Under the pieces are notes generated by a model. It saw only the letters and a program-made list of their open reading frames with translations. It ran no database searches and was not told the origin of the DNA. DNA of 64,000 nt from NCBI RefSeq assembly GCF_050920415.1, contig NZ_CP169309.1. The stretch is one strand, 5' to 3'. This DNA is from Escherichia coli (GTDB lineage Bacteria > Pseudomonadota > Gammaproteobacteria > Enterobacterales > Enterobacteriaceae). A program made the position numbers and the translations under genes. Positions 560 through 6,263 of the stretch are shown in pieces (the first letter of the stretch is position 1; each line of letters begins with the position of its first letter).

Positions 560-3500
560 TTACCACTGAATACCGGCACCGAGTGCGGCGGAGTATTCAC
601 CCTGGCTATTGGTACTACCTTGTAATTTGTAGACCCAACGACCATTGGCGCTCACCATCGACACACCTAAAGCAACAGCCGATTCGCCGTTGTAAGTACC
701 ACCACCAATAGAGGCCATGCTGGCTCCCGGCGTGTAAGCCTGCGGCAGACCGGTCATTGCCATTGCGGAAGCGATACCACCGCTCAGCTTGCTTTCGGTT
801 TTGGACAGTTTGTTATCCATCTCAACCATGCGCTGATCGGTGTATTGCTTCGTTTCCTGCACACTTTGCTTCAACTGTGCATAGTTCACTGCGTCGTTGT
901 TGTTCACGCCCGCAGAAACGTTGCTGATGCGAGTCGTACCGCCATTGCCGCCACCGAGAGTAATGTTGCTGTAGTCGATAGAGCCATCAGCTTTGGTGTC
1001 GTAGCGAACGCCACCTGCTTCGGAAGACTTCAGTTGCGAAACGTTAACCGCATCGGTGGCATTAACACCGGCAGCAACGTTGGTGATACGGCGCTGGTTG
1101 GTAGAAGAACCCACAGAGATTGTGTTTTCTTCGTTGGCCACGGAGCCTGTACCCAGAGCGACGCTGTTGTCAGCGGCAGCAATGGATCCAGAACCAATCG
1201 CCACACTGTCTTTACCCTGGGCGTTAGCATCTACGCCATCGGTGTTGGTCTTGAAGTACTTGGTGCTACCTGTGGTTACGATATCGCCAATACCGTTCTC
1301 GATATTGGTCACGCGAGTATCCAGATTCGTCACCTGATTGTTCAGGCTAGTAATGCTCTGGGTATTCTGGGAAACCTGCGCATCCGTTACTTTCAATTGA
1401 CCCACGTTGACCGCATCGGTATCCGCCGAACCAGCCGCGACGTTGGTGATCTGACGTTGACCGTCTTCGCTACCTACGGAGAATTCACCCACAGAGTTCT
1501 GCGGTGTATCCATGTTGTAGGCGGTGTAGCCAGTTTGTGCGCCACGGGTAGTTTGAGAACCATTACCCATTGCAATGCTGTTTGCATGGTTTGCACGCGC
1601 GTTGCTACCGATAGCAATACCGTTAATCGCATCTGCCAGAACTAAAGTGTTCAGGCCGATACCAATACCTGCATTACCATTAACGATGGTTTTTGCGCCC
1701 ATTGCCAGCGAGTCTTCACCGACTGCCAGTGAGTCTTCAGCCGTTGAGTTGGCGTGATAGTATTTGGTCGGCGTGGTGGCTACTGCACCAATCGCATTCT
1801 GCAACTGGCGAACCGTAACGGCATCATGGGCTTCAGAACCATCGGCAACATTGATGATTTGACGATATTTACCATCGTCACCGATCGACAATGCGCCAAG
1901 CAGTTCACCGTCAGTTGTGTCATAACCAATCACAACACCTTCTTCCGATACGCTGGTGTCACGAGAACCTTTAACTATTACACGGCTGGAAACGGAACTG
2001 CTACCCAGGGCGATACCCGTCTCAACTTCGCTGCGGCTGTCCTGACCAATGGCTACGCTGCTGGCTTTGGAAGCAACAGAGTTATAACCCACAGCGGTAG
2101 AGCCAATGCCTGCTGCGCTGGCATCGGTGAAGGTTAAACCGGTGTCATTGGTACGCACATAGTTAATACCTGCACCATTTTCTTCGATGTAGGTTTCACT
2201 GGTGTTACCGGCAAGCTGATTGATGACTTCGCTGTTCTGCTGGATCAGCATATTGGTGTTAAACAGCTGAGAACCGTTGATAGCATCGGTGCTACCTTCA
2301 CCAATGTTACCATCAGCAACGTTTGTGATAATGCTGGCCTTGCCGTCATGACTGGCGTTGTAAGCCCCTTCGCCGTTATTGGCGGTCGCATCCCACAGCA
2401 GCGCGTTCTCATCAAGCGCATCCAGAGCGTCACCGACATTGTTGTACTCGGCATTTGCAATGGTGTAAGTCGGCGCAGTGATAGCACCGTCAGCGTTAAC
2501 TTCTGCATCACCGCCCAGAGCATCAGCGATATATTTGTTAGTGGTATAGAGTTGTGAGCCGTTAATCGCGTCGCTGCTGGTGGCAGAGATTGCACCATTT
2601 GCGACGTTAGTAATCTTACTGGCAGTGTTATCTACCCCACGACCGGCGCTGAATGCACCAGCACCGTCATTGGCTGTTGCATCCCAGAGCAGGGCGTCAT
2701 CCAGCGTGGTATCGATCGCTTCCAGTGCGTCACCAACGTTGCTGTAACTGCCGCCAGCGATGGCATAAGTCGGTGCGGTGATACTGCCATCCGCATTCAC
2801 CACAGCGTTCCCGCCCAGAGCATCGGCAATGTAGTCACTAACGCCATAAAGCTGTGAACCGTTAATAGCGTCGCTACTGGTGGACGAGACTGCACCGTTT
2901 GCAATATCAGTGATTACACTGGGATCATTATTAATGCCGTGTTTGGCGCTGAATTTGCCTGCGGTTGTATCCCAGAGCAGAGCATCACCGAGAGAATCAC
3001 TAAATGAAGTGTTAATCGCAGCCAGAGCATCCCCGACGTTAGTATAGTCAGTGCCGCCAATACTATAGGTTGGCCCGGTTAATACACCTGTATCGCTAAT
3101 ATCAGCACCACCACCCAGATAGGACGTGAATGAATCAGCCAAACCGTAAAGTTGTGAGCCATTTATGGCGTCAGTGCTGTCAGAGGAGACTATGCCAGCT
3201 TGTACGTTGCTGATTTTGTTGGTGGCGTTAGTGCCGTGTGCAGCGGTGAATGCGCCTGCGGCATCGTCCCATTTCAGGGCGTCTTCACCGAGGTTAGTCA
3301 CCGTATCAGTCAGGTTAGTGATATTGGTGGTGTTAGTCGCCACGTTATCGTTAGTGGTTTTCAGCTGAGAACCGTTAACGGCGTCGGTGCTGGTGTCAGA
3401 GAGCTCGCCAGCGGTGACATTAGTGATTTTGCTGGTGACATCGGTGCCGTGTGCGGCGCTGAACGCGGTGCCATTCCACAGCAGGGCATCATCATTGAGA

Positions 3501-5536
3501 CCGTCTATGGCATTGGTCAGGTTAGTGATATTGCTGGTGTTGGTGGCGATGTTGGTGGTGTTGGTAGCGATATTGGTGGTGTTTGCCGCCACATCGTCCT
3601 TGGTCGCTTTCAGCTGAGAACCGTTAACGGCGTCGGTGCTGGTGTCAGAGAGCTCGCCAGCGGTGACGTTAGTGATTCTGTTGGTGGCGTTAGTACCGTG
3701 TGCAGCGGTGAATGCGCCTGTGGCGTCGTCCCATTTCAGGGCGTCTTCACCGAGGTTAGTCACCGTATCAGTCAGGTTAGTGATACTGGTGGTGTTGCCA
3801 GCCACTTCGCTCGTCAGGTTAGTGATGTTGGTGGTGTTAGCCGCCACATCGTCCTTGGTCGCTTTCAGCTGAGAACCGTTGACGGCGTCGGTGCTGGTGT
3901 CAGAGAGTTCGCCAGCGGTGACATTGGTGATTTTGCTGGTGACGTCGGTGCCGTGAGCGGCGCTGAACGCGGTGCCATTCCACAGCAGGGCATCATCATT
4001 GAGACTATCTACGGCATCGGTCAGGTTAGTGATATTGGTGGTGTTGCCAGCCACTTCGCTCGTCAGGTTAGTGATGTTGGTGGTGTTAGCCGCCACATCG
4101 TCCTTGGTCGCTTTCAGCTGAGAACCGTTGACGGCGTCGGTGCTGGTGGCTGAAAGGTCGCCAGCGGTAACGTTAGTGATTTTGCTGGTGGCATCTGTAC
4201 CATGTGCCGCACTATATCCCCTTTTAAGGTTGTCCCATTGTATCGTATTCGTGTTTAGATCCGCTAAGGCGTCGCCAACATTGCCATAAATACCATTTTT
4301 CAGTCTGTAATTCGGGGAAGTCACCACGCCCTGCGAATTGACGGTCGCTCCTCCACCAAGATTATCCGCTACTGACTTACTAATAGCATAAAGCTGTGAT
4401 CCATTGATGGCATCAGTACTGTCAGTGTCGATATCACCTTTTGCCATATTGACAATTTTTCGCTGAGCTGTTGTGTTACCCACGGAGACAGTATCCGCTT
4501 CAGTCGCGACAGAATCAGCACCCAGAGCAATTGAATTTTTACCTTGAGCAGTGGCCTGAGCACCAATTGCAATGCCATTTTCTAAACCGGCATAACTGCC
4601 TTGTCCAAGAGCAATGGCATTTGCCCCACCGGTAATACTCCCATTTCCCAGTGCGATTGCATTTACGCCGTCAGCTTTATTCCCCTGACCGATGGCAATG
4701 GCACCCGCAGCGATTGCCTGGCTTTGATTACCCAGAGCAATCGTATTATCGGTATTTGCAATACTCCCGTAGCCCAACGCGATACTGTTAAGCCCATTTG
4801 CCTCAGCTTTAGTACCCACTGCCGTTGCATTTTCAGCGGCTTCGGTCTCAGCGCCAACCGCAACCGCGTTTGCGGCGCTGGCAATGGACAGTCTACCTAA
4901 TGCAAGGCTGTCTTCACCACTAGCAGCACTCTCTCTACCTGCGGCAATGGAATTAGTTCCTGACGCCTTTGCCAGTCTCCCGAATGCAAGAGCATCCATA
5001 GCACTTGCTACTGTATCCTTGCCCAACGCTATGGTGCCTTCAGCTGTAGCTTGTGCAGAATTCCCCAGTGCAAGGGTATAATCGCTGGTCGCTTTAGCCG
5101 CACTGCCGATGGCGATTGAACGGCTACCCGTGGAAACCGTTGATTGCCCTAAGGCGACCGATCTTTCTCCTGACGAATTACTTGAGAAGCCAATTGCGGT
5201 ACTTCCCACCCCGGCATTAGCTCTTGCACCGACAGCAACACTCCCGCTACCCGTTGTGCCTGTACCCATTGTATCTGATGAGGCGACGGCCTCTTTACCA
5301 ATAGCAATCCAGTTATCACTCAGTGGCGTTTCGCCTGCAATTTCTTCTGCGCTTTTACCACCGTCAAGTGAAACCGAAGCATAGGCTCCAACTGATGAGA
5401 GTAACCCACCCGCAACCAGGGCAGAAATTAACAGCTTACTGCGCCCGCTCTTTTTGCCACGGCTCTTCGCCGTTTCGCTGGCAACGCTATAGCTGCCCGT
5501 CGCCGGATTCCAGATAACTTTAAATATTTTGTTCAT
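560..5536 (-). CDS. Trimeric autotransporter adhesin, YadA-like (UpaG/EhaG/SadA family), 1658 aa
   Basis: N-terminus [21 protein letters not shown]... is the extended autotransporter signal peptide; long low-complexity body with repeated NGSQL/AHGT/NITN head-neck-stalk motifs; C-terminus ...[23 protein letters not shown] is a YadA-type beta-barrel anchor. Confidence 0.85.
3360..4160. repeat. Intragenic tandem repeats, about 250 bp period, in the adhesin stalk
   Basis: cgctttcagctgagaaccgtt recurs at about 3361, 3610, 3862 and 4112, with near-identical flanking sequence. Confidence 0.8.
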
Positions 5537-5579
5537 TATTGATGCTCTCTATTCCTTGATATAAGCGCAGAAGCTGCAT

Positions 5580-6263
5580 TTATTTTTTGTTTTTTCGCTG
5601 CCGATTTTCAGCAGGTTGAACAGTATCGAACTGAATATTGTCCATATTGATGGACAATTTCAGATACTTCAGGTTATTAGGTGAAACGCCTTTCAATGTC
5701 AGATTAATGTCTTGCCATTGACCAGGCATTAATTGCAGGGTGGAGTTCATGGTGGTGTTGAACAGTAATTGCTGCCATTTTGCCAGCGCTTTTTTATCGG
5801 TGGGTCTTTCATTGCCCCATGTAGCTTGAAAGCCAATATTTGATACGGGAACGCTTAATAGGTTGACCAGCGAAATACGAATAACGCTGCCATTTTCAAC
5901 CGCATCAATAGCCAGCACCCGGCCAGCCAAACCAACCGAGCCATTGTTTAAAATGAAGTATTTTGTTTGTGCTGGGTTAAATTCGGTGAAGACAAATTCG
6001 TCCTGTTTGTCTTTAACCGCCTTTACTACACCTGCCAGCACTTTAGTGGTGTTTGCAATATTAATCTGTTGATTTTCAACAAACTCTATCTTTCTTTTAT
6101 ATTGTTCTTGTTGTTTTTCAAGAATCTCTATTTTACTTTTTTGCAATTCTTGCTGTTTGGCAAGATCGTCGATCAGATTCGCTTTCTCAATATAGTCACA
6201 CCCAGTCAATACCCAGAGTGGCAATGTTATCAACATGCTTAATAGTGCTTTTTTGATGCTCAT
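5580..6263 (-). CDS. Lipoprotein with coiled-coil segment, SadB-like putative adhesin-export helper
   Basis: MSIKKALLSMLITLPLWVLTGC has a lipobox (LTGC); heptad-like QQELQKSKIEILEKQQEQYKRKIEFVENQQ; ends 43 bp upstream of the adhesin start on the same strand. Confidence 0.55.
   Translation of the reverse strand: MSIKKALLSMLITLPLWVLTGCDYIEKANLIDDLAKQQELQKSKIEILEKQQEQYKRKIEFVENQQINIANTTKVLAGVVKAVKDKQDEFVFTEFNPAQTKYFILNNGSVGLAGRVLAIDAVENGSVIRISLVNLLSVPVSNIGFQATWGNERPTDKKALAKWQQLLFNTTMNSTLQLMPGQWQDINLTLKGVSPNNLKYLKLSINMDNIQFDTVQPAENRQRKNKK

Follow-up and report, generated by a model that had tools for sequence, protein, structure and literature searches.

A probable sadBA-type operon with a rare adhesin head allele between lldP and yibL in Escherichia coli

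The adhesin and lipoprotein genes

We analyzed a 64,000-nucleotide stretch of Escherichia coli DNA, below called the window, and focused on a pair of genes near its left end that encode a large YadA-like adhesin and a small lipoprotein and that very probably form an operon of the sadBA type. Coordinates are window positions, and the genes were delimited with a list of the open reading frames (ORFs) in all six frames. The adhesin ORF (560..5536, minus strand) encodes 1658 amino acids and the co-oriented lipoprotein ORF upstream of it (5580..6263, minus strand) 227 amino acids, both frames being intact over the 5.7 kb of the pair. The chromosome of E. coli strain MFDS1022581 (NZ_CP169399.1) contains the whole window at 100% identity, and RefSeq has the same two coding sequences there, one labeled "YadA-like family protein" (WP_001033275.1), the other "DUF3251 domain-containing protein" (WP_000023346.1). 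An earlier reading of the letters without database searches (the sequence-only reading) had given ORF sizes and coordinates that match both the ORF list and the RefSeq coding sequences exactly. Each of the nine E. coli loci examined had the same 43-bp spacer from the lipoprotein stop to the adhesin start (5537..5579, minus strand here) and the same shared orientation of the two genes, as would be expected of an operon junction. Long antisense ORFs within the adhesin gene, such as 3200-4153 (plus strand, 317 amino acids) and 845-1645 (plus strand, 266 amino acids), were treated as by-products because they lack RefSeq annotation and lie in repetitive, compositionally skewed sequence.

The interval between lldP and yibL that holds the pair is the position of upaG- and ehaG-annotated genes in other E. 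coli. On the downstream side, the 5′ end of lldP (L-lactate permease; 1..143, minus strand, ATG at 143-141), as annotated in NZ_CP169399.1, runs off the left edge of the window. Between it and the adhesin gene, a terminator scan found a hairpin of 13 pairs followed by a T-run with a TTCTTT tail (386..415, minus strand), a putative terminator 3′ of the adhesin gene, and the sequence at approximately 430-535 is a palindromic one resembling repetitive extragenic palindromes (REP-like), 36 bp of which (443-478) are repeated elsewhere in E. coli genomes. On the upstream side, yibL (6836..7198, minus strand) was recognized from the annotation and from an NCBIfam match above the curated cut-off (PRK11020, E 8e-57), and the AT-rich region separating it from the lipoprotein gene (6264..6835, minus strand) is, judged by composition and a promoter scan, the presumed upstream regulatory region of the pair. 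In K-12, lldP and yibL are 371 bp apart and the pair has no counterpart: homology to the window breaks off at 502, within the REP-like sequence, and restarts at 6832, 4 bases before the yibL stop, so that 503-6831 (6.3 kb) is missing together with the entire upstream regulatory region. The annotation and this alignment bear out the earlier placement of the pair between lldP and yibL and its absence from K-12.

Domain and structure searches gave a consistent picture of the adhesin, all features of which lie on the minus strand. An ESPR-type extended signal peptide occupies amino acids 1-53 (5378..5536), with PF13018 matching amino acids 1-48 (E 2e-15), and the ESPR segment is followed by a hydrophobic core and then AYA at amino acids 51-53, after which cleavage is predicted from the A-x-A rule. 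The hypervariable N-terminal head (amino acids 54-429; 4250..5377) comprises YadA-type head repeats, with YadA_head matches over amino acids 109-354, and the first neck; a second YadA_head cluster was found near amino acids 1141-1480, and YadA_stalk and neck motifs occur along the full length. Summed over the two overlapping halves in which the protein was scanned with Pfam, there were 18 YadA_head and 14 YadA_stalk matches at E <= 0.001. The conserved membrane-proximal stalk (amino acids 1141-1597; 746..2116) is homologous to crystallized segments of SadA: 2YO0, one of the SadA fragments that were the best PDB matches of the adhesin, aligns to amino acids 1241-1506 (E 1.6e-139), 2YO3 aligns near-identically to amino acids 1381-1584 (E 4e-90), and the search also returned the further SadA fragments 2YNZ, 2YO2, 3ZMF and 2YNY and solved trimeric autotransporter fragments of BpaC, AtaA, UspA1 and YadA. 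The protein ends in a YadA-type membrane anchor (amino acids 1598-1658, with GAGIQW at the end; 563..745), which covers model positions 1-60 of 60 of PF03895 (E 2.4e-19), and the Hia translocator (3EMO_C, 2GR7, 2GR8) aligned end-to-end with the C terminus, terminal Trp included.

The named NCBIfam adhesins were matched through their shared domains, and all of them scored far below the curated cut-offs (Ata 340 vs. 2500, EmaA 262 vs. 3000, BimA_first 175 vs. 800, BimA_second 131 vs. 600, YadA 108 vs. 750 and Vomp 285 vs. 500). The ESPR and YadA domains and the SadA and Hia matches, taken with these low scores, point to a SadA-type trimeric autotransporter (type Vc secretion) of the UpaG/EhaG/SadA group and not to Ata, EmaA, BimA, YadA or Vomp. 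The signal peptide, repetitive stalk and YadA-type anchor of the sequence-only reading were all recovered by the domain models (ESPR, YadA_head and YadA_stalk, and YadA_anchor), and its assignment to the UpaG/EhaG/SadA family agrees with the SadA alignments and with identities of 78.8% to a UpaG-annotated and 75.6% to an EhaG-annotated protein.

The N terminus of the lipoprotein reads MSIKKALLSMLITLPLWVLTG-C22-D, which comprises a signal peptide with the lipobox LTGC (...WVLTG-C22-D23) and places Asp at +2 from Cys-22. Asp at this position is the classical inner-membrane retention (Lol-avoidance) signal in E. coli lipoprotein sorting, and the protein would thus be kept in the inner membrane. 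In Salmonella SadB, Cys-22 is the lipidated residue (PMC3953254). The remainder consists of a coiled coil (approximately amino acids 23-92) and a beta-sandwich domain (approximately amino acids 93-227). The sole PDB match was Salmonella SadB (4C47; E 4.7e-71), with 52.2% identity over 205 amino acids and no gaps, amino acids 23-227 pairing with chain residues 3-207, that is, from the residue after the lipidated Cys through the C terminus; identity was lower in the coiled-coil part (42%) than in the beta-sandwich part (58%). Tandem Repeats Finder detected a 42-bp repeat (14 amino acids, two heptads) in 2.4 copies at 6067-6165, within the coiled-coil part of the gene, and the hydrophobic residues of the protein are concentrated at two heptad positions. 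Both features would fit the SadB coiled coil, which has nine heptads (PMC3953254). The gapless match over coiled coil and beta-sandwich marks the lipoprotein as a SadB homologue, and the lipobox, the heptad coiled coil and the likeness to SadB proposed before the searches have all held up.

Stalk modules and allelic variation

Between the head and the conserved stalk, the adhesin is built of repeated modules. Tandem Repeats Finder reported an array at 3309-4190 with a period of 249, 3.5 copies, 82% matches and a score of 1225; the repeats of about 250 bp noticed earlier at 3360-4160 were real, their range being slightly narrow. With boundaries set by regular expressions and hidden Markov model (HMM) matches, we distinguished in the array four tandem type A modules (amino acids 430-514, 515-597, 598-682 and 683-751; 3284..4249, minus strand) of 85, 83, 85 and 69 amino acids, in each of which a DALL-like motif with a Trp is followed by a neck (DAVNGSQL) and then by a coiled coil rich in Asn. 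They are 56-78% identical to one another in amino acids and 64-81% in nucleotides, and the exact stretches that they have in common, 26-113 nt long, are enough for unequal homologous recombination between modules. Differences in length among them include whole heptads (a 21-bp repeat in 2.9 copies, 14-amino-acid differences), and the coiled-coil register is therefore preserved. Four more diverged type B modules of approximately 96-99 amino acids each (amino acids 752-1140; 2117..3283, minus strand), located by regular expression and HMM matches, contain a DALL-like motif, a neck (DAINGSQLY) and, after these, an insert that is not a coiled coil, their identity to one another being 35-67% in amino acids.

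The number of modules varies between strains, as the sequence-only reading had anticipated. An HMM made from the modules found one to five full type A copies per allele across nine E. coli alleles, with adhesins of 1411-1778 amino acids, and a census of complete genomes by blastn with one module gave 1-9 detectable copies with a median of 2; by the latter count there are four in this strain, five in the UpaG strains ATCC 25922 and Nissle, and two in the EhaG of O157:H7. Each in-frame repeat of 249 bp corresponds to a whole structural module, and its gain or loss by unequal recombination would change the length of the stalk and leave the reading frame and the coiled-coil register unbroken. The four modules are old duplicates, to judge by their nucleotide identities, and the variation shown is one between alleles that are themselves diverged. 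Module number, and presumably fiber length, spans a wide range in E. coli and could decide whether the head projects past the lipopolysaccharide or capsule.

The operon itself is common. Of 5426 complete E. coli genomes, 4158 (77%) matched it in a megablast search and approximately 23% gave no match, and only 70 complete genomes matched at least 80% of the length of this allele. We compared the locus with eight other E. coli loci, including upaG- and ehaG-annotated ones, BL21 and SMS-3-5, and all eight had the same layout, a 227-amino-acid lipoprotein and the 43-bp spacer. Overall identity of the adhesin to the eight alleles was 76-86%, rising to 93-99.6% in the C-terminal 450 amino acids and falling to 43-65% in the head. 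When the head was searched alone, 80% or more of it was matched in 15 of the 5426 complete genomes, namely this strain and 14 others, the latter with identities of 90.8-94.2%; the head is thus a rare allele in a divergent E. coli lineage. Other parts of the window are unusual as well: selA-selB (29500-32500) is at most 96.0% identical to the 5424 other complete E. coli genomes matched, and the yia-sgb region (44700-54600) is at most 97.9% identical to other complete genomes, the nearest strains including 2020CK-00188, N96, EC42405 and E600003. This part of the chromosome, and apparently the strain as a whole, seems to represent a rare, divergent lineage, and because selA-selB and yia-sgb are divergent too, part of the rarity of the allele is the rarity of the lineage.

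Helper proteins in E. coli are 64-96% identical to the one studied here. Their synonymous divergence from it (dS) was 0.16 for E600003, approximately 0.5 for the LR-28/SMS-3-5 type, 1.1 for the UpaG type and >2 (saturated) for the EhaG type, and the ratio of nonsynonymous to synonymous divergence (dN/dS) was 0.05-0.16 for the helper and, over the 1350 nt at its 3′ end, 0.03-0.16 for the adhesin gene. Positive selection as the source of helper diversity is ruled out by the low dN/dS together with the very high dS, and the pattern argues for helper alleles that are ancient and under purifying selection, not fast-evolving. Over 36 non-independent pairs drawn from the nine alleles, helper identity did not co-vary with head identity (r = 0.13) and tracked that of the C-terminal 600 amino acids of the adhesin (r = 0.73). 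The former value gives no support to allele-specific recognition between helper and head; this strain and E600003, for example, have helpers that are 96% identical and heads that are 50% identical, in a set of nine strains whose heads range from 42% to 100% identity.

A speculative reading, which we hold only tentatively, is that sadBA may be a long-lived recombining polymorphism in which heads are freely shuffled, and helpers are ancient and track the conserved C-terminal stalk, not the heads; helpers of the EhaG type are saturated in dS against the other alleles compared, and the divergence extends into yibL next door. If so, SadB would recognize the conserved membrane-proximal stalk, the anchor or the signal region and not the head, which would narrow the question of what SadB binds and could be tested by allele swaps. 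Helpers down to 64% identity coexisting in one species, unmatched to heads, are natural material for such swaps aimed at SadB recognition.

The neighboring yibL gene shows a pattern of its own. The YibL protein here is identical to those of LTC201 (UpaG), CUVM3 (EhaG), LR-28 and SMS-3-5 and differs by about one residue from that of BL21 (dN 0.004), and against strains of other allele groups yibL has a dS of 0.43-0.55 with at most one amino acid change. Its dS against K-12 is the highest of 24 window genes, the range in the window being 0.04-0.38. This divergence suggests hitchhiking with the hypervariable sadBA, through linkage to a long-lived polymorphism.

Proposed biogenesis and alternative explanations

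We put the probability at about 0.93 that the region is the E. coli sadBA-type operon, at the locus of upaG and ehaG, and that it encodes a SadB-type helper lipoprotein and a trimeric adhesin. GC content is 34-36%, which is typical of H-NS targets, both in the 572 bp that precede the lipoprotein gene and in the first part of the gene itself, and the promoter scan found a sigma-70-like site at 6494-6465 (TTGACA, an 18-nt spacer and TAAAAT; an 11/12 match) that is a candidate promoter. Window positions 1-7300 gave no Rfam match at gathering thresholds. Both genes would probably be transcribed from this AT-rich region, which is likely to be silenced by H-NS.

The first product would be the SadB-type lipoprotein, lipidated on Cys-22 and retained in the inner membrane through the Asp at +2. 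The adhesin would leave the cytoplasm through Sec with its extended ESPR signal peptide, and three C-terminal anchors of four strands each would be assembled into one 12-strand barrel by the beta-barrel assembly machinery. The passenger would then be threaded out and fold as a trimeric fiber, with the variable YadA-like head at its tip, the modular stalk and the conserved membrane-proximal stalk. To judge by its homologue SadB in Salmonella, the lipoprotein may raise the amount and integrity of the displayed fiber, and it might do so by holding the three nascent chains together, in register, near the Sec exit, which would matter because the stalk is built of near-identical modules. SadB is a trimeric inner-membrane lipoprotein that raises both the surface display and the protease resistance of SadA (PMC3953254), and its gain in display, approximately 3-fold, has been replicated (PMC11054257). 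Grin et al. hypothesized that SadB keeps three long repetitive chains in register (PMC3953254), and a 2026 survey found SadB homologues to be exclusive to Enterobacterales (bioRxiv 10.64898/2026.01.22.700529).

Nothing contradicts this identification, but some points limit it. The annotation of NZ_CP169399.1 says only "YadA-like family protein" and names neither UpaG nor EhaG, Pfam DUF3251 scores the lipoprotein weakly (E 0.067), and the NCBIfam library used holds no model that catches it. An NCBIfam match of the lipoprotein to an SA0632-family lipoprotein signal was spurious (19 bits against a cut-off of 70), and because the Pfam and NCBIfam matches were weak or spurious, its identification rests on the PDB sequence search. 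The homotrimer with a single 12-strand barrel is predicted from homology of the adhesin to Hia and SadA, which have trimeric structures. Gene structure, homology, position and the differences in module number between strains rest on observation, and expression, the trimeric state, the helper effect and adhesion are predictions. The helper effect has been shown only for Salmonella SadB with SadA (PMC3953254, PMC11054257), and direct contact between the two is undemonstrated, cross-linking and pulldown having been inconclusive (Grin et al., PMC3953254). Lastly, ligand specificity is not transferable from UpaG or EhaG because the identity of the head to the eight others compared does not exceed 65%. 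The binding specificity of this strain thus cannot be read from UpaG or EhaG, which matters where those proteins serve as vaccine antigens or typing markers.

The helper could instead be a generic YajI-like periplasmic lipoprotein that has no role in adhesin biogenesis and is adjacent to the adhesin gene by accident. The absence of a demonstrated SadB-SadA contact (PMC3953254), the uncoupling of helper and head alleles (r = 0.13 over 36 pairs) and the fact that the paralogue YajI is unlinked to any autotransporter (PMC3953254) would agree with this, but the lipoprotein is 52% identical to SadB, compared with 14% between SadB and YajI (PMC3953254), its spacing of 43 bp and co-orientation are invariant in nine loci, the K-12 deletion takes both genes together, and two independent studies found a gain in display with SadB (PMC3953254, PMC11054257), so that we consider this explanation very improbable. 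An intact but effectively cryptic locus, mostly silenced by H-NS, with little phenotype and on a K-12-like path to loss, is a less remote proposition, if still an unlikely one. In its favor are the low GC content of the upstream region and the lipoprotein 5′ part, the derepression of upaG by hns deletion that a review table citing Totsika 2012 lists (PMC12525524), the statement by Grin et al. that the native expression conditions of sadBA are unknown (PMC3953254), and the approximately 23% of complete E. coli genomes with no match to the operon. Retention of the locus in 77% of those genomes and two frames intact over 5.7 kb argue against it, as do the dN/dS values of helper (0.05-0.16) and adhesin 3′ part (0.03-0.16), which indicate continuing purifying selection.

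Of the alternatives, the one that we doubt least, although we do not favor it, concerns the module array. The array may not be dynamic, and stalk lengths may have become fixed long ago in deeply divergent lineages of alleles, which would recombine with one another only occasionally. The modules are only 64-81% identical in nucleotides, with 82% matches reported by Tandem Repeats Finder, and thus look old and not recently expanded; every allele compared is strongly diverged; and O157:H7 and other EhaG-type genomes are uniformly at two detectable copies. Against fixed lengths stand the counts of 1-9 across complete genomes, the exact stretches of up to 113 nt between modules as a substrate for recombination, and the strains LR-28, 22AR0750, FDAARGOS_1280 and SMS-3-5, which carry one, three, five and four modules, respectively, with closely related C-terminal parts and helper proteins that are 97-98% identical.

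Other window features and known systems

Elsewhere in the window, several blocks differ from K-12 or are disrupted. The ORF list gives mtlD at 8289-9881, with approximately 150 extra codons upstream across the mtlA-mtlD intergenic REP-like repeats (an 11-residue peptide occurring twice), and the gene as annotated in NZ_CP169399.1 has 1149 nt (8289-9437). An IS21-like element, ISEc62, interrupts the HlyD-family gene yibH (approximately 12617-15881), and the istB gene of the element is annotated with a frameshift. At the position of K-12 rhsA-yibA-yibG (approximately 16000-28324) lie two vgrG/tssI genes (approximately 21789-23990 and 26012-28324, minus strand), each followed by hypothetical ORFs, one of them 829 amino acids long (19290-21779), together with an N-acetylmuramidase-family gene (17112-17864), a gene for an EF-hand protein and ISAs1 remnants; the block looks like orphan VgrG-effector islands of type VI secretion. 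A hicA/hicB toxin-antitoxin pair (35836-36448) between aldB and yiaW and an IS110-family element, IS621 (54715-55695), between ysaA and avtA are both absent from K-12. Genes for a GH127 glycoside hydrolase, a major facilitator superfamily transporter and an AraC regulator are intact at 40294-44794, where K-12 has only pseudogene remnants, and at the edge of this block naRNA4 (40294-40372, minus strand, 67.8 bits) is the sole Rfam match in the window. The annotation lists yiaO (48527-49513) as a pseudogene because it contains an internal stop; the gene specifies the substrate-binding component of the TRAP transporter for 2,3-diketo-L-gulonate.

Earlier work has already described the operon and where it lies, its deletion from K-12, and the helper with its structure and its effect on display, and RefSeq contains the exact proteins. 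In Escherichia, Salmonella and Shigella, according to Grin et al. (2014, PMC3953254), sadA is flanked by the mtl and lld operons; they also described a lipoprotein gene that precedes sadA by 44 bp and forms an operon with it in Salmonella, and a 5-kb deletion that takes both sadBA genes in E. coli K-12. Two systems resemble the helper in part. YajI, the SadB paralogue (nuclear magnetic resonance structure 2JWY), is also a lipoprotein, shares the beta-sandwich fold and is predicted to have a coiled coil at its N terminus, but it is encoded in the yajC-secDF region, unlinked to an autotransporter, and is approximately 14% identical to SadB (PMC3953254); when the PDB was searched with our helper, 2JWY was not among the matches at E <= 0.001. 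TpgA of Acinetobacter is likewise a small protein encoded beside a trimeric autotransporter, AtaA, and promotes display of the passenger, but it is BamE-like and OmpA-like, binds both peptidoglycan and, in the outer membrane, the barrel, and has no sequence relationship to the helper, nor is it a trimeric coiled-coil lipoprotein of the inner membrane (bioRxiv 10.64898/2026.01.22.700529).

The closest parallels are the SadA-type adhesins. SadA/SadB of Salmonella enterica serovar Typhimurium (STM3691/STM3690) share with the pair the lipoprotein-first layout (the spacer being 43 bp here and 44 bp there), the mtl-lld position, the position of Cys-22 and a near-identical membrane-proximal stalk. 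SadA is shorter (1461 amino acids, PMC11054257, vs. 1658 here) and differs in its head and module complement, and the coiled coil of SadB is only 42% identical to that of our helper, compared with 58% for the beta domain. Reviews (including PMC12525524) treat UpaG and EhaG as positional orthologues of SadA in E. coli whose passengers have diverged and which take part in aggregation, biofilm formation and binding to matrix or cells. EhaG, of enterohemorrhagic and diarrheagenic strains, has the same position and architecture, being 75.6% identical overall and 93% in the C-terminal 450 amino acids, and differs in its head (51%), in its helper (64-66%, dS >2) and in having three modules by HMM or two by blastn. 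UpaG (uropathogenic, 1778 amino acids) shares the flanks and the upstream helper, the UpaG-annotated protein being 78.8% identical overall and 98% in the C-terminal 450 amino acids, whereas its head is 46% and its helper 79% identical and it has five type A modules against the four found here. What is specific to the window is thus a rare head allele of a known and otherwise ordinary operon.

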